Shown piece by piece: positions 740 to 50,769 of a stretch of 64,000 nucleotides of DNA. Made by a program: the position numbers and the translations under genes. Under the pieces are notes generated by a model. The model worked only from the letters and a program-made list of their open reading frames with translations, ran no database searches and was not told the origin of the DNA. How positions within the stretch are numbered: position 1 is the first letter of the stretch; each line of letters starts with the position of its first letter. Source of the stretch: Mobula hypostoma (lineage: Eukaryota); contig NC_086097.1 of NCBI RefSeq assembly GCF_963921235.1, forward strand, positions 145,640,001 to 145,704,000, in the 5' to 3' direction.

Positions 740-3700
740 TTTGCTACGGCTGGGAAAAGAACAAAAGCTTCTGCTAAAGAAAGAGAAACAGAAAATGAAT
801 CCCCAGTCACTCTGGATTCAATCAGTGACTTCCTTAAACAGCAAAAATCCGAACTTTCTGAGGATTTTCAACGACTTAACAGCAAACTGGATACAATTCA
901 ACAAACTCTATCTAAGCATGAGATCCGAATTCAGGAAAATACTGCGAAGCTGCTGACACTTGAAGAGGACGCTGACAATACAATTAAACTCTGCAAAGAG
1001 TTATCTTTATCCAATGATAAAATGATGAAAAGGATCATCAGTCTCGAAAATAGAAACAGGAGAAATAATCTGCAAATTCTGGGTCTTGAAGAATCAATTG
1101 AAGGCACTGACCCTACGAAGTTTTTAATCAAACTTTCTGAAACAGCTATTCCCTGCTTTATTCACTTCCGAGCCGAAGCTCTATCAAGCATATCGCTCAC
1201 CGATTTTGATGGCATTGTCGGCGGCTGCAAGACCCAGATCAGTCATTCTAAGCTTTCATGAATTTCGTATTAAAGACCTTAAAATTCACCATACCCGTCG
1301 ACAAGGAATGATCGATTTCCAAAGTTAAAAGGTTAGATTCCTGGAAGACTATTCGCCTGAAGTTACGGCTGATCGCATGAAGTATACAGTTATATCGGAA
1401 TTTTACAATAAAGGATATAAACCATTCCTTCAGTTTCCTGCCCGTCTGAGTATTGTTTTGAAGGACAGATTGAGAAAAAGAATAAAGTTGGATGAAGAAG
1501 CAGAAGAGTTTCTGAAGGATGAAGTCTAAAACTGATATTTCTTATTTAATCAATTTTTTCTTCTGTTAATATGAATTTGAAATAAGGTTTCATTAAGCTT
1601 ATGTTTTGGCTGTTCATATATTGCCTTTCGTTATTTTTTTGATACTTTTTTATTATATCCCTTTTTGAGGCTTTATTTTAATACAGCTTTCTTTGAATTT
1701 GTTTTAAACTGATCCTTTCATATTTTCGAATACTGAGTTATTTTTCTTTTTATGTTGTGTCTTGGCAGGGACATAATAACCTTGTAGAACTGGAGTTTTT
1801 TGTCAACAGGATTTTTTGGGGAGGGAACGTAGTTCTTAGCTCGCTGACTGCTTATTGGTCAACTTTCTTGCTTTGGGTGGGGGAGGGGTAGGGTCTATTT
1901 TTTCCTCTGGGAGCTGTGTTGGGTTGAATATATGATTGTTTGTCTGAATACCTACCTTACGGTTTACTTTCTAGTTTTAATAACTTATGGCCAGATCTTT
2001 TAATTACATGTTGATTGGTATTTAATATGGTTCGAAATATTAACTTATTTAGTTTGAATGTGAAAGGGCTGAATCACCCCATCAAAAGTAACAAAGTGTT
2101 TGCTCATATTAAATTAAAAGCACCCATTATTTGCTTACAAGAAACACACATACGCAGCTGTGACAGCTTACGTTTTTTTACTCAGTGGAAGGATATGCAA
2201 TTCCATTCTTCGTTTAATGCAAAATCACGAGGAGTTTCAATTCTTGTAGCTAATACAGTTTCCTTTGTTCAGCATAAAGTTGTTTCAGACCCTAATGGTC
2301 GATTTGTTATTGTATCAGGGAACTTAGACAGTAATTTGATTGTTTTTGCTAATGTATATGCCCCAATGTAGACGATCCAGGATTTTTTGAACATCTATTT
2401 TCATTTTTGCCAGATTTGTGTACTTACTGTAGTGATGGGAGGAGATTTTAACTGCTGGTTCGATCCAGTATTAGATCGCTCATCTATCAAACCAGCCACA
2501 CTTAATAAATCAGCTTTGTTTATCCAATCCTTTCTAACTAAATGTGGTATAGTTGATGCTTGGCGTTTTCTCCATCCGACGGACAGGGAGAATTCTTTTT
2601 TCTCTCATGTTCATCATTCTTATACCAGGATTGATTATTTTTTATTGATAGTCAAATGATTCCATAAGTTTGATCGATCGAATATAAAGAGATTGCTATT
2701 TCTCACCACTCTCCTGTACTTCTATCTTTAAATCTTCCTGGTCCTATCCCTATGAGTAGATTTTGGTGATTTAATCTGTTATCCTCTATTATCCAATGAG
2801 GACTTTTTAAAACTTATGGAGAATCAAATAACTCTTTTTTTGAAGAAAATACATTGGAAGAGACATCTAGTTTTATTATATGGAATACTTTCAAAGCATA
2901 CATCCGGGGTCAAATTATTTCTTATACCGCAAACATCACTAAAAAAGCTAACAAAGAGAGAAATGAACTAGACAATCAGTTAAAACAACTGGACCATAAA
3001 TATGCTTCGGTACCCGATCCTGAAGCATACAAGAGACGTATTGAAACTAAAACTAAATATGATCTTCTTTTAACGTATCCAATTGAAAGCCAACTTTTAA
3101 AAGATAGAAGTCAATTTTATATTCACAGAGATAAAACTGGTAAGCTACTGGCTAATCAATTGAAGCCATTTATAGCCAAGAGGTAAATTAAAGAAATAGG
3201 TAAAATTAATGGGGATATGACAACTGACCACCTTGAAATTAACGACATTTTTAGGGAATTTTATTCTAATTGTATAGTTCTGACTCTGTTAATGATAATA
3301 TTGCAATAATTTTTTAGATCAATTAAATATTCCTAATCTTTTGTTAGATGATCGTAGGCAATTGGATCAACCTATTTCCCAGGAGGAAATTGCTCAGGCT
3401 ATTCGAGAATTGCATTCTGGGAAATCCCCAGGACCCAATGGATTCTCTGGAGAGTTTTATAAGGCTTTTTCCTCTTTGCTTATACCACACTTATGTTCTA
3501 CCCTTGCAGATTCCTTTAAGGTAGGAAGGTTACCGCAATCTTTTTACGAAGCTTCCATTTCACTCTTTCTCAAAAAGAATAAGAATCCTACTGAATGTTC
3601 TTTGTACAGACCTATCTCTTTACTCAATTTTGATACTAACATTTTATCTAAAGTGTTGGCTCGCAGACTTGAAACTATTATCTCTTCTATAGTTTTGGAT

Positions 3701-6420
3701 GATCAGACAGGATTTATTAAAAATCGATATTTCCATTTTAATATACAGCGTTTGTTAAATGTTCTCCATCTAAGGAAATATCGGAATGTGTGATATCTTT
3801 GGATGCAGAGAAGGCTTTTGACAAGAGTTGAATGGAACTATCTATTTACATCCTTAGAAAAATTTAATTTTGGATCTAATTTTATTCATTGGATTAAATT
3901 ACTTTATTTATCTCCCTCCGTTCGGGTTCTTACTAATTTTCAGAATTCTAAACCCTTTAAACTCCAACGTGGAACTAGACAAGGTTGTCCTTTGAGCCCT
4001 CTGCTCTTTGATTTGGTATCAGAACCCTTAGCAATTGCTTTTTGAGAGACTGAAGAGATTACTGGTATTTTAAGGAGAGGTACTATTCATAAAGTGTCAC
4101 TCTATGCTGATGACTTATTGCTTTTTAATCTAATGTTACAACCTCCTTACCATTTATGTTCCACTTAGTGACTAATTTTAGTCAGTTCTCAGGATATAAA
4201 TTAAATTTACAGAAGAGTGAACTGTCTCCTTTAAACAACTTAATACCAACTGATATTAAACTTCCTTTTAAAATTTTAAGTAAATAATTTACGTATTTAG
4301 GAGTAGCAATTACTAAGAATTATAAAGATTTATTTAAGGAAAATTTTTTAAGTTAATTGAATTATGTTAAAAGAACACTTTCTAATTGGTCGCCTCTTTC
4401 TTTATCACTGATTGGCCGAATCAATTTTCAAGCTGTACCTGTTTTTAGTCCTAAATCTTTTTGTGACTCTTTGGATTCAATTCTTTCCTCCTATATATGG
4501 AAGAATTAAAAACCTCGTATAAATAAAGCTCACCTTCAGAAAACCAAACAGAACGGAGGATTTGCCTTACCCAATTTTAGGTTATATTATTGGGCAGTTA
4601 ATATACAAAATATTACGTTCTGGATATATTACATTAACCATGAGAATTGCCCCACATGGGTTTCTTTGGAAGTCAACTTCCATAAAATTTTTCCTGTATT
4701 TCTTTACTTAGATCGCTTCCTTTATTTTTAAATAAACTAATTGACAATGTGGTGGTTAAACATACATTAAGGATTTGGTTACAGTTTAGAAAACATTTTG
4801 GTTTATTGAGATTCTCCCTCTCAAGTCCCATATTTTCTAATTGTTTTTTTAAACCATCTTTAATTGACTTATCTTTTAAAGAATGGGATAGATTGGGTAT
4901 TAAACGATTTCAGGATTTGTTTGATAGAGGGAATCTCTTCTTTTGTGCAACTTTCAACGAAATTTAACCTATCCAACTTTTTTCCATACTTACAGATGAG
5001 ATTTTTTAAGATCTCAATTACTTACATTTCTTATAAATCCAGATAAGAATATAATAGATACAATTTTTAATCTGAAACCCTTCGATAACGGTTCAATATC
5101 TCACATTTATGGTCTACTGTTGGGACTGAAAAAGGCCTCTTTAGATAAAATTAAAGGAGATTAGGAAAAGGATTTACAGATTCTCATATCTGAAGAGCTG
5201 GAAGATTACTTTAAAATTGATTAATTCTTCATCATTATGTGCTTGTCATTCTTTATTACAATTCAAAGTGGTACATAGAGTTCATATGTCTAAAGACAAG
5301 CTCTCCGTTTCTACGCAGATATTAGAGAGAGTTTTTTTGGGTAGATGATTTGTTTACACTTAAATGACTTTCGCCACCAGACTTCTATTTGACAAAGTAC
5401 TGTGGATTGAGTCCACAACAATGCGCTTCCGAAAAAGGTGTTAATACCAGATGTTTCTGGCACCATAGTTTGACCTGATGTTGTGGTTTCGAAGACAGTA
5501 TTACCTATACATTATAAATATTAATTGTCTTCTATGTTAGCACGTAAAATGCCAAATAAATGTATTGTGGATTTAACTTGCATTCCAGACATGTTGGCGT
5601 TGGAAGGAAAAGGATGAATTCAGAAGGTGTGATGTTTGTATGTAGCTTCAAAAGGAAGCAATGTCTATAACTTTTTAAGTAGCGATTACCTTTGTGTTTA
5701 GCATATAAATATCAAGCCCACATTGGACTAGCAGACCTTGCTACCGAAAGCATCTCCATCCGTAGATGCCTGCTGTACCTTGTTGTGTCGAATAAAGAAG
5801 CTGCTTTGTATCTACCAGTGACTCTGTCTCTCTGATGATTTCATCCATGCTACAACAGCAGATATTTCCCCTTACTGTGATAGATGTACTAATTGAGTGG
5901 CCACACTAATTCATAAGTTTTGGACATATCCGAGCCTTGAAAAGTTCTGGAAAGATGTATTTCAAACTTTTTCTGCACTTTTCAATGTCAGCTTTAAGCC
6001 TAATGTCAGCTTTGACTGCCTTGTTTGGTATTGTTGAGGATAGTGCTACAAAATTGAAGTCATCTAATTTGCAGGTATTGGCCTTTATGTCTCTTATGGC
6101 CAGGAGGGCAATCTTGCACAAGTGGAAGGAGGCCACCCCGTCCACTCATATTCAAGGGCTATCTGATGTTATGTTATGCCTTGATCTAGAGAAGATTCGT
6201 TGTTTGATTTCTGATTCTAAACATGATTTTCTAATGTAATGGGGGACCCTTTGAATTATTTTCACAATCTTTGAACTGTTATTAAAGTACGGATCTGAGC
6301 CATTATTATTATAACATATGGCAAGGTATTTTTCTTTTTTCTTCTTTTTTTTAAACCAACCAGCTAATTTTGGTAGTGGGGGTAGATTTATTATAATACA
6401 ATTATTTTATCTTATTTCAT
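740..6420 (+). mobile_element. Degenerate L1-clade LINE (ORF1 remnant ~800-1530, ORF2 remnant ~2027-6239); ends approximate
   Basis: LENRNRRNNLQILGLEE (ORF1); SLNVKGLN, CLQETH, GGDFN, RIDYF (APE endonuclease); [17 protein letters not shown] (RT); many stops and frameshifts. Confidence 0.92.
5324..5857. mobile_element. 534-bp insertion in the L1 fossil; its 3' part (5479-5857) is LTR-like
   Basis: 9-bp direct repeat GCAGATATT at 5315-5323 and 5858-5866, with L1 coding sequence resuming across it; TGTTGTGG...AATAAA...CTACAACA. Confidence 0.7.
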
Positions 6421-6565
6421 AATTTAAAGCTGCAACACATGTAAACATCCTTAGCCAAAAGTACCACCTCCTAAGGTTCCCACTTCTCCAGAAATTGAGG
6501 AATTTTCAGGTGTTAAAGGAATCAAGATGTATGAGGATAGCGTAGGAAAGTGGCACTGAGATAAA

Positions 6566-6670
6566 AGCAACACACGTAAAATGCTGGAGGAACTCAGCAG
6601 GTCAAGCAGCATTTACAGAAATGAATAAACAGTCGACATTTTGGGCTGAGACCCTTCTTCAGGACTGGAA
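6566..6670 (-). mobile_element. Penelope-like terminal fragment with a decayed hammerhead motif (copy A)
   Basis: Minus strand reads CAGTC-CTGAAGA-AGGGTCTCAGCCC-AAAA-TGTC-GACTG; same body as the other copies. Confidence 0.7.
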
Positions 6671-6814
6671 AGTTCGGGGGAAGACATGCAGGATTACTTG
6701 CGTTTATGAATTACTGAGATAAAAGATCAGATATGAACTCAATGAAACATGGAACTGACACAAGAGGACAATGTTCATTTCATATTCCCATCACTTGATA
6801 GCAAGAACTCCCAA

Positions 6815-7025
6815 GCCTGGCTGCGAAAGGAAGATGGTTGGGCAGGGGGCTAGCAACCCACCCCATATAAACCCAGAGCTACAGTAACGCCAACAGACGT
6901 TCCAGAGACCTCATCCCTGGGAAAGGAAGAATCTTTAAAGATGGGCTGCAACTTGAAGGCCTGGCCCAGGATAGAGGACTCTGGCGAGCTACCGTTGGCA
7001 GCCTATGCCCCAGTAAGAGTAGTAA
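6815..7025 (+). mobile_element. Short RTE-derived non-autonomous retroposon fragment
   Basis: GGGCTAGCAACCCACCCCATATAAAC 5'-type motif followed by an RTE-like C-terminal/3' end (LAQDRGLWRATVGSLCP). Confidence 0.55.
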
Positions 7026-7199
7026 AAGTATGTTGATAGTGGGACATGACTGAGTGCACTGACACAGCAAATGCAGTAGGTCCCATACAACTCTGATGTA
7101 CCTCCTATGCCAAAGCACAGAAGCCAACTAGTGCACAGGCCAGAGACTAATTATGTGATGTTCATGATAGGTATGTGTACATCTAAAGCAGCTACTCAC

Positions 7200-7351
7200 T
7201 TCTGTTCTGCTTCGGTGAGAGATTTCCTAACTGCAGCATACTTAACATTAGCGTCTGTCAAAGCCTTCAAGATGTTTTCTTGGGCAGCAAGGTTTTGATC
7301 AATGTAAACTCTCAGCTGGTCATATTTCTTCAGTTGTTCTTCAAAGAGCTT
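7200..7351 (-). CDS. PTPN23: PTPN23 exon 18 (152 nt) KLFEEQLKKYDQLRVYIDQNLAAQENILKALTDANVKYAAVRKSLTEAEQK
   Basis: CAG/GTGAGT boundaries. Confidence 0.94.
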
Positions 7352-10300
7352 CTGCAATCAAATTAATTTTAACAACATGATACATGCGATATTGATTAGA
7401 TTATGAATGTTACTTGCTTTTCCATCATCAATTTTGCAATCACAACCCCAACAATCATTAACTATATTCTTGCAAGCAAGGTAACAGATAAATCAGCAAT
7501 AGATTCTCCTACGCACATTCTTGGTGAATTATGCAAGTGCAGAATAATAAAAAAGATAGGTATCCAATATATGGGGAAAAATAAAGAATCCATTAATGAG
7601 TGGTTAAAGGCATTCAGAAAATTGATTTGTATAAATATGACAAAAAAAAGAGGAAGTGACTTTACAGTACACACAAAATGCTGGAGGAACTCAGCAGGCC
7701 AGGCATGCTCTGAAAAAGAGTAAACAGTCGACATTTTGGGCCTGATGAAGAGTCCCGAGTCCTGATTAAGGGTCTCAGCCCGAAACATCCACTGTTTACT
7801 CTTTTTTGCAGATGCTGCTCAGCCTGCGGAGTTCCTCCAGTATATTTTGTGTATTGCTTTGATTTCCAGCATCAGCAGATTTTCTCTCGTACGTGATTTT
7901 GCGAGTCTTGTCATTTTTTTATGTGGTAAACTGAATAGCTAGAAGGAAACCCACCATTCTGGATGTAAATCTTCTGTTAATCTTCTTTACAAAGCAAACT
8001 ATCTCAGCCTAGTCAGTTCCTTTTCAGAACTAATATTTTCAAGACTTGCTAATATCCTTCTAAACCTACTCAACATTATGAACATTGCTACAACATCCTT
8101 TTCTATAATGCACTGACCAGTAAAGTACACTGTAATCTATTTGTAGTTCAATTGATACCTAGCATAATAAGCCTGTTCTTGCATTTTACATTTCAGCAAT
8201 AGGAGAAAGTACCCCACACATTTTCTTAAATATTTTATATGCAGGGCCTGCTACCTTAAAGAATCTATGGATCCAAGATCCTTCCCCACACTTCTTTATA
8301 TCCAACCACTTAACGCGCATTTCTTTTCTTCTTTCACCTTCCCCATGTATTGTTTTAGTCTCTTGACTAAATTCCAGATGCATGTGGTGACATAACTAAT
8401 CCACTTTCTAAATGAAACCAGAAAATGGTGGAAATATACAGGCAACATGTAGAGAGAGAAACAGTTCACGGTTTACATCCGCCAGAACCAAAGAGAAAAT
8501 AGGATAATTTGAAGTTGCAGAGTTGGTAGGATTTGGAAATGGAGGACAAAGGATAAATACCAGTGTTGCTATGAGGACCAGTTGTAGAGATCCACCAAAG
8601 TAATGGATTAAGGGGAGCAGTAATAGGTTGATTAATATAGTGAGAAGCACAGTGTGTTGCAACAGAGGGGCATGACTAGCAGGATAGTCTGTACTAATGC
8701 CGAAGAGCTGGGCTAACCAATAATAATATACAGCAGAAATAGTCAATTCCAATACAGGGAGAGATCATGAACTACATAAACTACAATATTTTAACCAGGA
8801 GGTCTCAGATGCCGAGATGAAGCATTAAAAATGATATGCAACAAGCTCAGATTGCCACTGCATGCTGAATGGAAGTGCTTTAAACAAAGCAACTGCAGTG
8901 ATTATAGGGAGTTAGGAAAGAGGCTGAAAAGACCTCAAAAGGTAGTAATCGCCGGATTACTCCTGGTGCCACTTGCTAAACTGGGCAGGAACAGAAAAAA
9001 AAAAGTGCCAGCTTAACCTATTGAAGATTGCGTACGCAAGAGGGATGAAGAAAATTTCTCTCAATTAGTAGTGAATCGCTGAAGTTCTCGGCCCTGGAGG
9101 GTAGCAGTGGCCGGAGACTGAGAAATACTAAAAAGGCGGATATAGATTAATACAATAGATTCCAGTTCACTGGGACACATGGGGACCAGTATATTTTGGC
9201 CCAATTAAGCAGGTGCCCCAATTAGCCGAAGTTTCATGGAAATAGTTAAAAAGGTATATAAAAAAGACAAACTACAGTCTGAATAACAAATTATCTATTT
9301 AATTGAAAACTGAAGAAATTCGAACACTACCAAAACTACTACAGTATTATAAAGCTGTGTATTAGATCCTGATAGTTATTGACAGAGGAATTAATCTAGC
9401 GTCCACTGCCACGTTCTTTTGATTCAATACAAATTAACAAAATCAGCGCAGACAGCAAGTGTTGAAAATGGACTGCCTTCCTGCAACACTTTCTACTCAT
9501 TTGATCATCTTGCCATAATCAAGACTACACTGCACAAATCCAGAATTTTTGAGTTAGTCATATTAGTGTCATAGAGTTGCTCACCAACCTTCATTTCTGA
9601 ATGGTCTGTTGTAACTAGGGTTGTAGTGATATCATCCTTTTGAATGGCATCTCTGAGCTGCTGTAAAAGAGATGAGCGCTGGTCTCTCATTTCTTCAACC
9701 TTCAATAAAATACGTTTCATGTTCTGCAGTGTAGCCTTTTCCTCTGTGAAACAAAGAACCAAAAATATTGCTAGGCATTGCCATACCTTGGGACAGGGAT
9801 TTTGACTACATAAATAGCCAAATTGAAAAAAAAACACAATTTTACACAAATACATCCAAACAAATAGAAAACACAGCTTAATACCATCTGAGACAGTGGG
9901 GCTTGGAAGAGCAGCTCGAAGATCTTCTAAGGGTCCACTTAGCAGTCGCAAGTTACTAATGTGTAAGTTCATTGCTTTGTGCAGCTCAGTATTGGTGAAG
10001 CTAGCTTTCTCATGCACTTCCATGTACTTGGACCATTCCTTGCTGAGTTCCAACGTTTTGCCTTGCTGGGTCATTTTCCCAGTCACCTCTTGAAATTTCT
10101 TCTCCATTAATTCATCCTGGTCTATAAGTTCCTTCAATTCTCTTAATGACACTTCTACATCAGTGTAGAGTCCAGACAGAACTGTGAGGGGAAAAAGGAA
10201 CTAAATTAACATTTGGAGAGCAATTTTCAATGCACATCATACAAAACTAAAACAACCAGGGGAGCGGTAGGGAAAGAGTGGGAGAGTGGGGGCAATCAAC

Positions 10301-13300: not shown

Positions 13301-16300
13301 AAGGTTTTTAAACACCTTGCACAAGCCATGGTTTGAAAACTCAAAAGATACTTAAAACTTTCTTGCAAACACAATGGGATTCCAAATTGGCACAATCCAA
13401 TGTTAACTGCTCACATTTTTTCATCCTTCATTAGTGCCCATGATTTATTTCAACTGTAGTTATGATGCCAGCTTTTCTCTACAATTAAAGCTAATGAGCA
13501 TATGCTTTTCAATTTGTTACTGTAAACATGAGCATCACAGTTTACATTGAGAGAAATTTCACTGGAACTTTTTACTACATTCAATGACTAATTTTTCTGT
13601 GAAATTTCTCGCAGCAGTGCTTGCTTTAGCTACCTTTTAAAAAATATACACACACATTTCCCAAGATAATTTGCATAATAAATTATTTTTGAAAATATTG
13701 CTACTACTGTGCAGGCAAAGGTATTAACTTTGCCACAATACCTACTCTAAGACTTCATTCTTGGTGTCTATTTTATCAACGACTTCACGCAATAATTTTG
13801 CTTTCTCTTCACTGGAAAAAAATGAAAAGCAGAAATTACAATCACAAAGATATATTAAGAACAATACAATTGTATACTAATATTAGAATCAATGTTTACT
13901 TTTCAGTAACATAGCCCTGCATCAAAATTCCACATCTCATGCTCACCTGTACAGAGACGAGGCTTCGTGAGCTTCAATTGGTACCAATTTTGCAAAGATA
14001 TCAGGACCAGTCACATTTGGATCAGTTGGGTTAACAGGAAGGGCTTTTACCAGAGACGCTCCTATTAAAAATAGGTTATTACAGGATTTAAACTATCTGT
14101 ATTTATTTCCAAAAATAAAACTGCAATTAATGATAAACTATAGCTCTGTTGTTTATTGTGTAAGTTTCCAAATAAACAGCTTACTTTGAGGGCTTTATAT
14201 GAGACACAGTATTATCTAGATTACAGCAAGGAAAGTGTTTGAAATGAAGAATCCAGCATTTTTAATCCAGCAAAACGTGTTAGATGAGAGCTAGTATCTC
14301 TACATAACATCTTACATAGGGAGAAAAATTATTCGGCTTCATGAAAGAAATGCTCAAAATACTTGGTAGAATCATAGAAAACCTGCCTTTCACAGACGTC
14401 AGCGAATCAATGGGAGGAACAGCCTCATGGTAGATGAAATCATTATCCTTCTTGGCAGCAGTGTACCTACACACAAGAAAGGTTATTAAAACCGTAGGAA
14501 AAAAAATCTCCAATATTTCTCCAATATTTCTTCTCACCCAAACTTCAAAATGTGAAATATGTTGATAACACTATCAAGACAGAAGTGAAGTACTCCTCCA
14601 ACTGCATAATGAGACATCAACTAGAAAAGGTCCTCACAGTGGACCTAACAGCGTTAACTGATCTAGGATCAGTTACAGAGCAGGAAGTGACAAGCGAACC
14701 CTGAATGCAACTAGGGAATAAGATGCAGATTCACCTCATAGCACCAGGGCTTAGAATTAAAATTATAAAGTAATGGCGCATATATTTTGAATTTCTTTGA
14801 CAATTGTATAAATGTGGTGTGATGCTGTTGTGGGACATGCACTTTCAGTGATTATTTTCAACAGTGAATGGCATACTGGCTTTAAGATGTATCATAATAA
14901 TGGTGCTAGTTACGAGACACGTTACTTAACCTACTTATATTAATTGATTCTCATTTACACTTTTTGCTATCAAAAACTATTATGCAGAGGTCAGTCATTT
15001 TTTCTACCACATGCCACATACAGTGGGAGTGAGCCACAGCAACAACTAAATGGCAAAACTGCATTTTGTTTCAGCAGCACATTGAAAAGTGCAAGAGAGG
15101 GTAGAAATTGATTGCTTTACTTGTCAACCTTCAATATAAAGGTAGCTGCAAACTTCAGTATTATCCTTTGCACTTACATACCAAGCTTTGCCATTGATAA
15201 TTTTTATTTCCATTAGTTATTTCAGTGTTTTATTTAATCAATGGATTTTTTAAATTAACATTAAAGATAAAAATAATGACAAGTGGCTTGTTTCATTATC
15301 ACCATTACTGATCCTAGTTTTCTTAATTATTAAGTCAAAGGGCATTAAACAGGGTAAATATAGAGAAAGCCAGAACAAGCAGCACAATCTAAAATTTTGT
15401 ATGAGGCCATTGAGGACTGAGATTGTAAATAGTTTTACCAAACTACAGGACAAATCTCATGTACAAAGACCAAGAATTTTATTATAGCATAAAATCAAGG
15501 ACACAGACCAAGTGTGGAAGCAAGGGAGGAGGAGAAGATGGCGCAATGCAGTGCGCGCGGCCTCTCCAGTGAATGATATCTGTAATCTGTCAAGTAGGGT
15601 ACCGTGCACAATTCTGATTTGATGGAGGCAGACGTGAGAGTACGGAGGAACATCTGGAGAAACTTCTGAAATGCCCGCCTCGCTGCCGCTGCTACTGTGT
15701 GGTAACCGGAATCTCCGGAGCAGAAGGCCCCGAATCCTCGGCTTTGCTTGTTTCAGAGGTTGAAGGCGCTTGGCAGAGGATGGCGCTCAGGAGGCTGTAT
15801 CGGAGGGGCTGGTCGGAGGCTCGAAGTTTTCGGATGGACAGACTCAGTGTCGGCTGTGGTCGGGTACTTCCAATGCATCCGCAAGTTGTCGGTGCCTGGA
15901 GGTTTATGGCAGGGAGTTTCTCCCTTTTGCCGCCTGCTACCAGGAACTCGGGAGTCGATCGGGACGTGACTTTTTTTTACCGTACCCATGGTCTGTTCTT
16001 TATGAAATTATGGTACTGCTTTGCACTGCTGTAACTATATGTTATAATTATGTGTCAGTGTTAGTCTTTGGTCTGTCCTGTTTTTCTGTGATATCACTCT
16101 AGAGGAACGTTGTATCATTTCTTAATGCATGTATGCATTTCTAAATGACAATAAAAAAGGACTGAGTGTTCTCATAATCTAATCTAATCTAAAAAAAAAT
16201 TGCCAATGATTACCGACAGGAGTTCTCCACATACCAACACACATCAACGTTGCTGGTGAACGCAGCAGGCCAGGCAGCATCTCTAGGAAGAGGTACAGTC

Positions 16301-19300
16301 GACGTTTCAGGCCGAGACCCTTCGTCAGGAACAGCCTGAAACGTCGACTGCACCTCTTCCTAGAGATGCTGCCTGGCCTGCTGCGTTCACCAGCAACTTT
16401 GATGTGTGTTGCTTGAAATTCCAGCATCTGCAGAATTCCTGTTGTCTCTACATACCATGTGGGTTTCCTTCCACATTCCAAACACGTACTGGTTAGGATT
16501 AGTAAATTGTGGGTATGCTGTCTTGGCCGTGGAAGCATGGTGATACTTGACCTCTGCTCCCAACAATCCTCTGACTGTGTTGGTCACTGATGCAAAAGAC
16601 CGTGTGTTTCGATATACAATTGAGAAATAAAGCTAATCTAATCTTAACTCAAGTGCTTAGACAGTGAATTCTAGTTAATTGTAGACATCCCACCTCTCCC
16701 AGAAGTTCCAGGAGTCTCTCGCATATTGATGGCAGCTTCCTGAAACCCACAAATTATATACAATATCCCGGAAATTTATTTTTTTGAGAGGGAGAGCGGG
16801 AGCGGGAGATCGAGAGCGATCATCCTGATTGGTCTCTCTTTGTGCTAAGTAGACCTATCAGTTTTCTCTGTGGGCAGGCTTTACAGTCAACGTCTGTCCT
16901 CCATCAGTTAAGTTTCATGTCCTGCACCGCCATGGCAGAGTGTTTCAAAAAAATATATAAAACGCACTTCACCCCAGACTACGTTAAAGTGTATCCCTGC
17001 CTAATAGGGGTAAAAAAATAATGACAATGTTGCTCGTTGCACTGTTTGCAACAGTGACTTTGCTATTGCCCAAATGACTGTAAAAGACATGTTGAGGCGA
17101 GTTTAACAGGTGTCATTCATTCATTAGCATAGCTAACAATATTTAAACTAGCTGGCTAGCTGCTAAGGAGCCACTCTATTGATGTCCTACGTGATGAGGC
17201 CCAACTCCCTGTAGACATGCTTAAAGTTGTAATAGAATTAAAAAAAACTCCATGATAAAGATAGCAGAATCAAGGGATATGAGGAGAAGGCAAGATCGGG
17301 GTACTGATTGTGGATGATCAGCCATGATCACAGTGAATGGCGGTGCTGGCTTGGATGGCCTACTCCTGCACCTACTGTCTATTGATAATATAATATAAAA
17401 AAAGTGCAGAAATAGCAAAAAACTATGCCTGCTCATCAACCAAGACAGCAGCAATTGTGAATATGGCACTGGAATATTCAGAGGATCCGTACAAGTCCAT
17501 CCAGACAGAAAAAAGGCCATACAGTATTTTGGTTGATGAAAGCAACGATATCATGTGTGAGAAGGAATGTACTACTTTAGCCAGGTACTAGAATGAAACA
17601 CAGGATAAGGTAACAGTTGGATTTGTAGACATGCCAGTGTGCAATGATGCCAAAGCTGAAAACATATTCAACTGCATTGCACCATCCGTACATGACAAAG
17701 GCCTTGAATGGTCTAACCGTGTAGGATTTAGCAGTGACAACTGCAATGTGATGATTGGCAAAAACAACTCTGTCTTATCAAGAGTGAAAGCACAAGCCCC
17801 TCATATTTACAGCGTTGGCTGTCCAAGTCACCTGGTTAACATTTGTGCCAAAACTGCTGCTAAGGAGCTCTCAATGTCACCTGAACAACTGCTCATTGAC
17901 ATCTACTACTACTTTGAGAAAAGTTCCAAAGAGAAGACTTAAAACAGTCTGAAGAGTTCTGCAATGTTGCCCAGGAGAGATTACAAAAGTATTGTCCTAC
18001 ACGCTGGCTTTCTTTAGGAAAAGGTTTGGGCCATCTGCTCCACCAATGGCCAGCCTTATTTCATATTTTGAGTCAAAGAGTGAGAATCAGAAGTCATCTC
18101 ATATTCAGAAGAGGCTGAAAGACCCCCAAATGAAAATATACACTTGCTTTCTCCATAATGTCACACAATGTTTTGACAAATTCAATTTGATTTTTCAAAA
18201 CAAGGCACCTATCCTCTTCAAGTTGGATCAGAGTGTAGAAGAGCTCCTGCATGACATAGCAAGCAGATTTATTGAGCCAAAGGTTTTGAGAGAACAGAAC
18301 ATTCAGGAGAAAGATGTGAGCAACCCTGAAATTCACTACCCAGATGAAGAGCTTTTTACTGGGTACCTGGCAAGGAGGCAGTTGCTAAGAGAGGAAGCAC
18401 AAGAGATTCCCCCCTTACAAGACAAAGCAGTTCTTCAAAGATGGCAAAGCATTTTATGTCAGGTGCTTTCAATAAATCTTGGAGAAGTTCCCAATGAGAG
18501 ACCAAATCTTGAAAAATCTGTCAGTGGTCATCTTGGCTCTCTGTATTGAGGTGAATCCAGACCAGATTTTGACTTTGGCAGAGAGATTTCCAAATGTGAT
18601 CGCAGCAGATGCAAAAGAAGAGCTCCACTTGGAAGTCCTGGATTATGTCTCAACTAACCTTGAAGGACTGATGCCAAACTACAAAAGTTTGCCAGTTGAT
18701 GAGTTCTGGGGTTCTATATGAGATATGTAGATATAGATATGTAGATATAGATATGTAGATATAGATATGTAGATATAGATATGTAGATATAGATACGTAG
18801 ATATAGATACGTAGATATAGATACGTAGATATAGATATGTAGATATAGATATATAAAAATAAATAGTTTCAAAATGTGATCAAATAAATTGTTGGGTTCT
18901 TTCCTAATCAAATGTCCTGCATACATGCACCCTTGGAGGTCGACCCGGGGGAGGAAGGGGATATGGGGTTGTGGGGGGTGGGGGTGGGGGTGCTACCTCC
19001 CTGAAATGAGTTTCTGCAGGGTGGGATGTCTGTAATTGGGACACCTTGGGGCCAGTATATTTTGGCCCAATGAAAGCAGCTTCCCCAACTAGCCAAGGTT
19101 TCTTGGAAATAGTTAAAAAGGGATAAAAAGGACAATCTACTGTTTAAGTAACAAATTATGTACATATTTAAATGAAGTACAGAACAAATTAGACCACCAA
19201 AACTACTACAGTACTATGGAACTGTATTAGTTCCAAAGAGTTATCGACAGAGGAATTAATTTAGTGTCCACTGCTGTGTTCTATTGATTGACTGTAAATG

Positions 19301-22300: not shown

Positions 22301-25300
22301 CTTACTTTAAACAAGAGTATCACTGGGACTTACAGTACATGGACTCTTGGAGCATTGTACTGAATTACATTGGATCAAACATACTATATCAGTATATAGT
22401 ATATATACACACAAGATAAGGAAAACTGAGGGGGAAACTTTCTACTTCTGCTGCTACACTACACAAAATGAGTAAGAAGCACAGTAATTTTTTTGATTAC
22501 TTACTTTCCTCCAATTACATCCATAGTAAATCGCAATGCTTCTTGTACAGTCTCTGGCTGCCCCTAAAGAAAGGGGAAAAGTTCTTGGTCAATTTTTTGT
22601 ATTGGAGACTAGTATCAAATTAAATGCAGGTGCAACAATTGACAACTCCTTCCCTATCCACCAACACAGGGCACATTTTCAAATCTATTTTTATACGTCT
22701 TTCCCTTGAATTCTCATTTATTGAAATCACACAGTATTAAGATGATTTTACACCTGCTAGTGCTTTTATATTCTCCAGCTTTAAATTACAGTAATGTAAA
22801 CAGTACAAGTGCAAAAAAAAAGTAGAGCATTTACCTCATGCACCTAAGCTACTATTTTACTCAACACACATCTCCTTTTACTGACTATATCCCTTGATTC
22901 ATAAAAGCAAAAAAGAGAAAATAGGAGAAGGCCACTCAAGTCTCTGCCATCGTTCAGAATCAGGTTTATTATGTGAAATGTGTTGTGGCAGCAGTACAGT
23001 GCAAGATAACAATTATTACAAGTTACAAAAATAAATCAGGTGAAACAAGGCTAATCAACCTCAATATCGTATTCTTCCTCTTTCTCAAACTCTGATATCA
23101 TTTAAGGAGATAAATTTCTAGATGTAAGCTTATTCAACGGCTTGGTAGTGAATTCCATGGTTCACCGACATCTCAATGAAACCTTTTCTCATCTTATAAT
23201 TATTCCTCATTGTCTATTACTCCTTCCAAGTTTTCAATTTGAAGACAACTCTCAAAGAAAACTACTTTGACAAGATCTTAAATGGACCTCATGTTCAGTA
23301 CCAGAATTTCCACTGAATAATTCCCCATCAGTAAACCAATTTTAAAACACCAGCAGCACTGAGCTTTTGAGAGAATTTTTAACAAATTTTAAGATTGATG
23401 GATTCTAATATTACTTCTTGCTTAAAACTCTTAAGGTTAGATTCACTTGAAGCCTTAACTCAAGAAATAGAAGGAATTGAGGAGAATTACAGAACCCTTA
23501 TAAAAGGAAAATATTAGCTAGAATACACAATGTGCTTTAGACAATGACTTCAGTCCAACCAAATCACACTGATCTTAGTGCATATGTACAATATCAAGTT
23601 TCACCAACCAAAAGAAACATTCAGTAAAGTTAGAAACTGAAAGTGAGAGCAAAATTTAAGGTTTAAATAAATGCAGGAAACTCAGAATTACAGTAAATGT
23701 TCTATGTTCACAGATCTGCCCGCATCCTCCTGGCAATGAGGTTATGAAACCTACACTCACAACACGCTGGAGGAACTCAGCAGGTCGGGCAGCATCTGTG
23801 GAAAAGATCGGTCGACGTTTCGGGCCGGAACCCTTCGTCAGGACTGAGGAGGGAAGGGGCAGAGGCCCTATAAAGGAGGTGGGGGGAGGGTGGGAAGGAG
23901 AAGGCTGGTAGGTTCCAGGTGAAAAACCAGTAAGGGGTGGGGGAGGGGAAGCAGGGAGGTGAAGAAAGAATAGGGGAAAACACAATGGGTAGTAGAAGGT
24001 TATAAAACCTGTAGTGAGGAGGACGTTGACAAGTGAGCACTTCATTAGGTTGAAGTGCTAATTTATTTCCTTTAAGAAATAAATTCAAAATAGCTTAATA
24101 TGATACAATCACATCATTTTGTACTGTTTACCAGGCATTCTTTATATAAACAAGCTGGAGCTTACCTTTGCATACTTCATTGCTTCATTCAACTTATCTA
24201 ATGAACTTTGAAAGTAAGCAAGCTGCAACAACAGAACAAGAGTCATTTGTAAATATTCTACAATGTAGTTAAGCAGATGTGAAAATTTTAATGTAAAGTC
24301 ATATTCATTTTACAAATCGAGGGGAAAATTAATATGTTCTGCTCACCCTTTCTCCATATTTCTGTTGTTCCTCTGACTGTTTGCCCATATGAAGCTATAA
24401 TAAAGTACAAAAAGTTTTCAGATTGGTAGTTAGCAAGAATCACAAAGTAGTCCAGTGACTAGAAAAAGGAAATAACAATGATACTGTGTCCATTACATTT
24501 ATGGAACAAGTTGCTGTCCCAACTGAAGTAGCAATAGTAGAAAACATTCAAAATAAATATCCCATACCTATGCTACATTGGAAAAGCACAATTGGCAATA
24601 GCTTCCCTTTCAAGTGACTAACAATTTGCAACAGTGATCTTAAATATTAAAAGGGTACAAAAAAGTCAGTTTGAAAGTCTCCTAAACTTTTAGCCATATG
24701 ATAGATATTTTTCCCCACCTGTAAGCTTAATTAAGTAACTATTACAATTTTGGTTTAAAACTGACCTTGAAACAATAGGCACTTTGAGTAATCTAATGAA
24801 ATGGCAACAATTACTGCAGGGAACTTCAAATAATTGATAAACTCTGCAGAAAAGATTACATCATTTGCAAAATCAGGTCATGGCATGAATGTTCAGAAGT
24901 ACTGAACACAACGTAAAGTTCCTCTTTTTCCTTTAATTAGAAGGGAGTCCTTGAAACACCTTTGGATACTTACACTGCCTTACAAAGTCATACAATGAAG
25001 GTCATATTGGTGCCAGCTCTCTACCAGAGAAACTCATTTTGTTTCCTATTGAAAATCACAATTACGCTTGTCTCCACCATATCTGTAATTAAAACGTTCC
25101 AGTTTCGATCAGACATTACACAAAAATATTTTTTCTTTCACTTTATACCCAAGACCTCTAGACCGCCACCAAACTGAACATCCTCCCATTATCTGCTCTG
25201 TCCAGACTCATCACCTTGTATCCTTCAGGAATCTTCCCTCAGCCTTCTCTCCTCTAAAGTAAAAGAAACTGTCTCTAAGCTAAATCTCGTGACTGCAGCC

Positions 25301-50249: not shown

Positions 50250-50383
50250 CTCGCAAACAGAAGGAAATCTGCAGATGCTGGAATTTCAAGCAACACACAT
50301 AAAAGTTGCTGGTGAATGCAGCAGGCCAGGCAGCATCTCTAGGAAGAGGTACAGTCGACATTTCGGACCGAGACCCTTCGTCA
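50250..50383 (-). mobile_element. Penelope-like terminal fragment truncated inside the hammerhead core (copy E)
   Basis: Near-identical to copy C; 8-bp flanking repeat CAATTTAT. Confidence 0.75.
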
Positions 50384-50769
50384 ATTTATGCTGTTAGGAT
50401 TTGCTTTATTGGAAGTAATGGCACAAAAATCCTGCGCAGCTGTTGTGCATCTGACTGTGTCTCAAATTTCACAGTTGCCTTTTCAGTCTCATAATGGTCT
50501 TCCGCAGGTTGTACCCGGACTTCTTGTAAGATTCTGGACCACGGATCTAGCCTTCAGTAGACTAAATCTCCTGGTTTATCCAGGGTTTCTTGTTTGGAAA
50601 AACTGAGCGTGTTCTTCAAGGCACACACTCGTTCATACAGGTCTTGACAAAGTTAGTGATTGCTGTGGCAGATTCATTCACATCCAAAAATGAATCCCTG
50701 AAATACAGTCCAGTTCATTCACTGATTCAAAGCAATCCTGTAAACACTCCTCCCCTTCCCTTGACTATA

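Follow-up and report, generated by a model that had tools for sequence, protein, structure and literature searches.

The window analysed here is a 64-kb stretch of the Mobula hypostoma genome in which PTPN23 exons lie on the minus strand. The identity of the gene, proposed in an earlier note on this DNA, was upheld: upstream exon sequence matches the HD-PTP chains in the PDB (E 8e-22), and BRO1 matches were obtained on four of five exon stretches. Pfam returned nothing on the short exon adjoining the insert described below, and the first PTPN23 exons were not found by motif search. The host intron (22564..24165, minus strand) is 1,602 nt long and has GT-AG borders. It separates a 57-nt upstream exon (24166..24222, minus strand), which we take to be exon 10 in the numbering of human PTPN23, from a downstream exon at 22505..22563 (minus strand). 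These limits are set by the splice sites and by exon joints in sequencing runs X9, X17 and X19.

Within this intron lies a 244-bp insert (23753..23996, minus strand), delimited by comparison with other copies and by the empty site found in runs X14 and X10. Its flanks are the two copies of a 14-bp target-site duplication, 13 of whose 14 positions are identical: 23739..23752 at the 3′ end of the element, with one mismatch, and 23997..24010 at its 5′ end, where a contig of X14 bridges the site. The general repeat search did not list this duplication, which was recognized by eye and with a script, in agreement with the earlier description. The insert is in sense orientation and is thus transcribed inside the host intron. 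It had been placed about 320 nt downstream of the donor; however, that distance belongs to the hammerhead motif, which starts 319 nt past the donor at 24165 and 1,250 nt upstream of the acceptor, whereas the insert itself starts 170 nt past the donor. At the insert site the window holds only a monomer of the element, with no tandem repeat. Compared with longer copies, the insert starts approximately 85 nt past the stop codon of the element's open reading frame (ORF). The window copy lacks any ORF sequence.

Other features surround the insert. The target site at 23997-24010 is itself near-palindromic, and two short hairpins are found close by (24031-24064). A short fragment of another high-copy repeat occupies 22954-23008 of the same intron and gives no alignment to the Penelope end. 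In the next PTPN23 intron, two stubs from a sister subfamily are inserted head to head as a palindrome (16270-16380), the minus-strand arm of which has an intact core and a broken stem I.

Anatomy of the hammerhead motif

The insert carries a minimal type I hammerhead motif at 23808..23847 (minus strand), recognized by direct reading, by a descriptor match and by its fit to the minimal hammerhead ribozymes (min-HHRs) of PMC4209133. The letters from 23847 to 23808 are exactly those read earlier, and the CUGANGA and GAAA cores, the stem II preceded by an extra A and the palindromic ACGU were all located where they had been placed. Read 5′ to 3′ on the minus strand, the motif consists of the 5′ strand of stem I (23847-23842), the CUGACGA core (23841-23835), the extra A (23834), stem II with three G-C pairs, a U.G pair and a 4-nt loop (23833-23822), the GAAA core (23821-23818), the palindrome ACGU replacing stem III (23818-23815), C17 (23814) and the 3′ strand of stem I (23813-23808). 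Cleavage is predicted between C17 at 23814 and 23813. The motif therefore combines both cores and a UH cleavage site with a G10.1-C11.1 pair in stem II, an extra base after A9 and a palindrome at 15.1-16.1 instead of stem III, as min-HHRs do. The core is fully intact and the same as the family majority. Both strands of the closing stem I are present as claimed, but the earlier reading left unmentioned an A.C mismatch at the fourth pair, where A-U is the majority among 29 family copies. Stem I of the window copy thus comprises three contiguous pairs, the mismatch and two further pairs, compared to the 4-5 bp expected of min-HHRs.

A minimal-hammerhead descriptor matches the 64-kb window once, at 23847-23808, and matches none of 150 simulated first-order Markov windows. 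The earlier note had proposed a covariance-model search; Rfam gave no match at gathering score in the 64-kb window and, over 23600-24150, reported none of its hammerhead families at E<=10. Since the library models are unsuited to a motif without stem III, this silence speaks neither for nor against a hammerhead. Folding z-scores of the motif against shuffles were null (0.48, -0.16 and -0.37). Three more decayed motif copies are present in the window, at 6635-6662 (minus), 7762-7789 (plus) and 50357-50384 (minus), and none passes the descriptor.

Min-HHRs have been described in the pseudo-LTRs of metazoan Penelope-like elements (PLEs) (Cervera and De la Pena, 2014; PMC4209133). The hammerhead of the insert is such a PLE pseudo-LTR min-HHR, a class known since 2014. 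As in that paper's available description, the motif here has type I topology, no helix III loop, a palindromic 15.2-16.2, an extra base between 9 and 10.1 and a G10.1-C11.1 pair, and it occurs mostly as solo copies from truncated PLEs and as opposite-strand pairs. There are also differences: stem II is 4 bp long here and 7-8 bp in the Schistosoma families, and approximately 88,500 core matches are found here versus some 2,000-9,000 there (PMC4209133). The available text of that paper makes no mention of cartilaginous fish.

Genomic copies and the parent element

Searching the genome at the DNA level yielded 1,703 candidates, of which 40 were scored and 30 loci were taken, comprising the window's own and the 29 best other copies. 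All 29 run on 5′ past the insert in shared sequence, and in five (L003, L009, L011, L025 and L026) this sequence includes ORF pieces with reverse transcriptase (RT) and GIY-YIG motifs. Pfam matched RVT_1 on the upstream ORF (E 1e-8) and placed GIY-YIG 0.6 bits below the cut-off (E 2e-4). RVT_1 was matched again in L064 and L062, and nothing was matched on the L009 ORF piece. The Atlas neighbours of the ORF carry PF26215, GIY-YIG and RVT_1. Four loci were extended to 9 kb, one of which, L064, is a near full-length element made up of an inverted copy, a hammerhead, ORF pieces and a second hammerhead 3,516 nt downstream. The parent element thereby presents the single ORF with RT and C-terminal GIY-YIG of endonuclease-bearing (EN+) PLEs, every ORF inspected being broken, together with pseudo-LTRs that place a hammerhead at both ORF ends. 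A CX3CXXC linker (CKRKCYTC) precedes the endonuclease in L011, L024 and L026, and on this one motif, which is also found in Nematis, the clade would be Neptune-like.

A second sample was chosen solely by the exact 35-nt hammerhead, which has 1,121 matches in the genome; 29 loci were analysed, the window's own being left out. Measured upstream from C3, their 5′ ends fall anywhere between 4 nt and more than 1,500 nt away, and 18 of the 29 copies extend as far as the ORF stop. The 5′ end of the window copy is shared by none of the 29 copies in either sample. Over both samples, the 3′ ends form two classes about 38 nt apart, with 34 of 59 loci ending near the 3′ end of the window copy and 25 being longer, and an adjacent inverted copy is present at 27 of the 59. 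Target duplications of 12-18 bp flank 24 of 52 evaluable other copies, compared with 2 of 300 random pairs; six of the 59 loci were not evaluable because the element reaches the locus edge. The family thus displays marks characteristic of PLEs: truncation at the 5′ end, inverted ends, a 30-40 bp tail in some copies and target duplication. Genome-wide, the core pattern has 88,531 matches, whereas its reversed control has 35.

The earlier note had interpreted the insert as a non-autonomous element of Penelope or retrozyme type. Its Penelope-type origin and minimal type I hammerhead stand; however, the insert is not a discrete non-autonomous or retrozyme unit, as copies continue into an ORF with RT and GIY-YIG, the 5′ end is unshared in either sample, the site holds no tandem and the hammerhead is minimal rather than canonical. 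In all probability, the insert is the 5′-truncated tail of an autonomous PLE encoding RT and GIY-YIG, namely the pseudo-LTR without its optional tail. It was likely inserted through target-primed reverse transcription, and its hammerhead is likely an inactive passenger in the PTPN23 intron.

This copy pattern also bears on whether the insert could be a dedicated non-autonomous unit some 244 bp long, akin to a retrozyme or SINE, with its own ribozyme-processed circular RNA as the means of spread. Its length falls within the 150-450 bp range of retrozymes, the window copy has no ORF, and derivation of retrozymes from PLE pseudo-LTRs, often as monomers, has been argued (10.64898/2026.07.22.740005). 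Animal non-LTR retrozymes further share with the insert a type I hammerhead, a short non-coding unit and a link to PLEs, yet they consist of tandem units with canonical hammerheads and produce circular RNAs, whereas the insert is one truncated end of a PLE and its motif is minimal (PMC7229834; 10.64898/2026.07.22.740005). No fixed-length tandem units were found at the window site or among the 58 sampled copies, the hammerhead lacks the helix III and loop contacts of canonical ones, and the copies grade continuously into the ORF. Together with the unshared 5′ end in both samples, these findings largely refute a dedicated unit, which we consider highly unlikely.

For the truncated PLE tail favoured here, known PLE biology suggests a route of insertion. 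The endonuclease would have made cuts staggered by 14 nt, RT would have started at the inner of the two start sites of the family and stopped after 244 nt, and repair would have duplicated the target. The insert spans its own cleavage site, with 183 nt before it and 61 nt after it, and its template was therefore uncut or religated RNA. In the parent element, the hammerhead of the 5′ pseudo-LTR may help to process the element RNA, acting either in dimeric form or together with the protein that the element encodes.

Characterized PLEs offer close parallels. EN+ elements of the Neptune and Nematis clades likewise have RT followed by a C-terminal GIY-YIG, 5′ truncation, partial tandems, inverted ends, a 30-40 bp tail and target duplications; the CX3CXXC linker fits their CX2-5CXXC, and target duplications measure 12-18 bp here versus 8-10 bp in rotifer PLEs (Arkhipova et al., 2013, PMC3846280; Craig et al., 2021, 10.1101/2021.04.23.441226). 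The hammerhead of the green anole element Poseidon_Ac cuts only with protein and is dispensable for insertion (Frangieh et al., 2024; PMC11167929). Poseidon_Ac resembles the present family in having two RT start sites that give rise to the tail and uncut RNA as main template. Its ORF, however, starts inside the hammerhead, whereas the first ATG of L064 lies approximately 60 nt past the tail, and it has been characterized biochemically, whereas the present family is known here from sequence alone (PMC11167929). The literature search found no paper describing this family; Repbase and Dfam fell outside it, so the family may already be catalogued there. For cartilaginous fish, the same search, which excluded supplements, found only 10.64898/2026.07.22.740005, with one chondrichthyan.

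Several further features were observed among the copies. Second copies are frequent within 0.1-1.3 kb, often in opposite orientation, as in the flanks of L012, L016 and L021 and in the first 3 Mb of contig G000:C1. A hairpin is possible after the hammerhead at 23753-23800 (minus strand) and in the tails of L002, L009 and L033, with a loop that varies between subfamilies. In addition, AGATGCTG can pair with the tail, and the resulting structure may set the two RT start sites.

Stem covariation between motif families

Within the window copy's own family and two sister subfamilies, stems I and II show one-sided changes only and no two-sided compensatory change. Compensatory double changes in short-stem copies were rejected as evidence of covariation, G>A with C>T being the commonest mutations. 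Motifs whose stem II differs were searched for as well, which gave 465 matches, against 78 for the control, and brought in at least four further families. Across six motif families in which the core is kept, the majority sequences of stems I and II remain paired in 30 of 36 cases, compared to a mean of 17.7 with shuffled partners, a level reached in none of 100,000 shuffles. Stem I alone, which no search pattern constrained, has 13 cells with two-sided change in 12 sequences, matched in none of 500 shuffles, and pairs at 89% versus 23-53% in slid controls. These counts are inflated by kinship among the sequences, one family has a weak majority stem I, and two families comprise 2-3 copies. The earlier note named a lack of covariation of stems I and II across genomic copies, together with a lack of cleavage, as refuting its proposal; the stems do covary between families, although not within that of the window copy.

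These results also weigh on the notion that the motif is a hammerhead look-alike without ribozyme ancestry. Such a look-alike would accord with the missing Rfam match, with a folding z-score of 0.48 against shuffles and with the lack of two-sided compensatory change inside the element family. It would hardly account for a core kept across six families while 30 of 36 majority pairs hold, for two-sided changes in stem I beyond all 500 shuffles and the slid controls, or for a motif sitting precisely where PLE hammerheads are known to sit. We regard it as vanishingly improbable.

The other families include loci L095-L124 (for example L102, L108, L120 and L122), in which at least four other minimal-hammerhead families have a stem II of 6-8 bp and a different stem I. 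A TATA-like word occurs about 35 nt upstream at several of these loci. At 30 loci of the other hammerhead families, the upstream 1.5 kb yielded neither an RT nor a GIY-YIG motif.

Cleavage, splicing and the host intron

A search for the footprint of cleaved templates, made in the commonest of the sister subfamilies, counted 43 junctions that start at offset -1 from the cleavage site, 362 at 0, 154 at +1 and 117 at +2. We did not take the peak at offset 0 to prove cleavage, as joins to inverted copies, internal deletions and CpG decay explain it. Among 100 listed rows of the peak inspected by eye, approximately 30 run into an inverted copy by way of the 4-nt homology that stem I itself supplies, and approximately 18 are internal deletions between short repeats. 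Junctions with host flank were found at 0, 5, 6 and 6 of 30 loci each for the same four offsets, none with a duplication, and four of the five at offset 0 end in T, which fits CpG decay of a -1 junction; the junction classifier labels 51 of 200 random stretches as element. Simple host insertions starting at the cleavage site are therefore not enriched in this subfamily, in line with uncut RNA as template. A separate observation is that, genome-wide, inversion junctions of the commonest subfamily (L155-L184) cluster at the cleavage site via the 4-nt stem I homology; the ribozyme's own stem I may thus steer template switching.

Splice-like sites were also noted in the element. In L011 and L025, a sequence resembling a splice donor runs across the stop codon of the element, and in the window a pyrimidine tract followed by CAG (23846-23870, minus strand) ends inside stem I. 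A suspected pseudo-LTR intron between this donor- and acceptor-like pair would resemble the Drosophila Penelope intron, which ends at helix I. Not one copy in the genome breaks off from the element sequence at the donor-like site (0 matches), and none does so among the sampled loci; unspliced genomic copies are uninformative here, as PLEs keep introns. Within the host intron, the tract and a GTGAGT near the insert end could define a cryptic exon; three runs showed no joint of this kind.

The insert is lineage-specific. In run X14 a single contig bridges 23734 to 23996 with 261 nt missing, corresponding to the insert, one copy of the duplication and 3 nt. Run X10 also lacks the insert, contigs of X5 enter it from both sides, and X11 and X12 are undecided. 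Organisms G and C thus have an empty site, and A and B a filled one. The insert is younger than the splits from the relatives, and PTPN23 exists without it, because two related organisms have an empty site. A domesticated ribozyme would be conserved at the orthologous site, which is empty in X14 and X10 and filled in X5. Known intronic type I hammerheads resemble the window copy in lying on the sense strand of their introns, but they are few and conserved, whereas the window copy is one of tens of thousands and absent from relatives. The insert provides a clean presence/absence marker among related organisms.

Folding models are unfavourable to cleavage by the monomer. In its best fold, which is 4 kcal/mol more stable than the open form, G5-G8 pair with C15.2-C17 at a probability of 0.98-1.0, and helices I and II have a probability of 0.02-0.07 in a 301 nt context. 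A nested model of the active dimer reaches -14.3 kcal/mol, compared with -23.4 kcal/mol for two inactive monomers, all in energies that leave out Mg2+, tertiary contacts and co-transcriptional order. Single min-HHRs show no cleavage, and dimers low cleavage (PMC4209133). For the window copy, poor cutting is predicted because stem III needs a second copy, the core pairs in a competing helix and stem I is mismatched. Alone in the intron, the monomer is thus predicted by these models not to cut at a rate that matters, and the hammerhead is likely an ordinary, inert passenger. Contigs join the flanking exons in each of the probable RNA runs X9, X17 and X19, which come from the two insert-carrying organisms. 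These are three of four such runs, X20 being left out, and their RNA nature is a guess. A spliced contig indicates that some pre-mRNA escapes or tolerates cleavage, which is not proof of zero cutting, and missing intron cover in probable RNA contigs is uninformative.

The intronic hammerhead might nonetheless tune host expression through slow or conditional cutting of the PTPN23 pre-mRNA, assisted by element protein or a second copy. The pre-mRNA strand does carry an intact core, 1,250 nt ahead of the acceptor, the insert is common to two organisms, and the anole PLE hammerhead is protein-assisted in vitro (PMC11167929). Moreover, a second copy with intact GAAACGUC is present on the same strand at 16328-16301; however, it lies 7.5 kb away, its stem I is broken and an inverted arm adjoins it. 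Absence of the insert from two relatives, the spliced joint in carriers and the unfavourable folding also speak against such tuning, and with approximately 88,500 copies a sense intronic copy is expected by chance every few tens of kb. Tuning of PTPN23 therefore appears very unlikely. It is just as doubtful that tens of thousands of intact sense intronic hammerheads are cut in trans by the RT-endonuclease of the element, in which case PLE expression would act as a transcriptome-wide cutter of pre-mRNAs and the PTPN23 copy would be one target. Regarded as the inert passenger favoured here, the single PTPN23 copy matters little, being one of some 88,500 of a known motif class. A genome with so many copies, however, allows counting tests on the role of PLE hammerheads in vivo.
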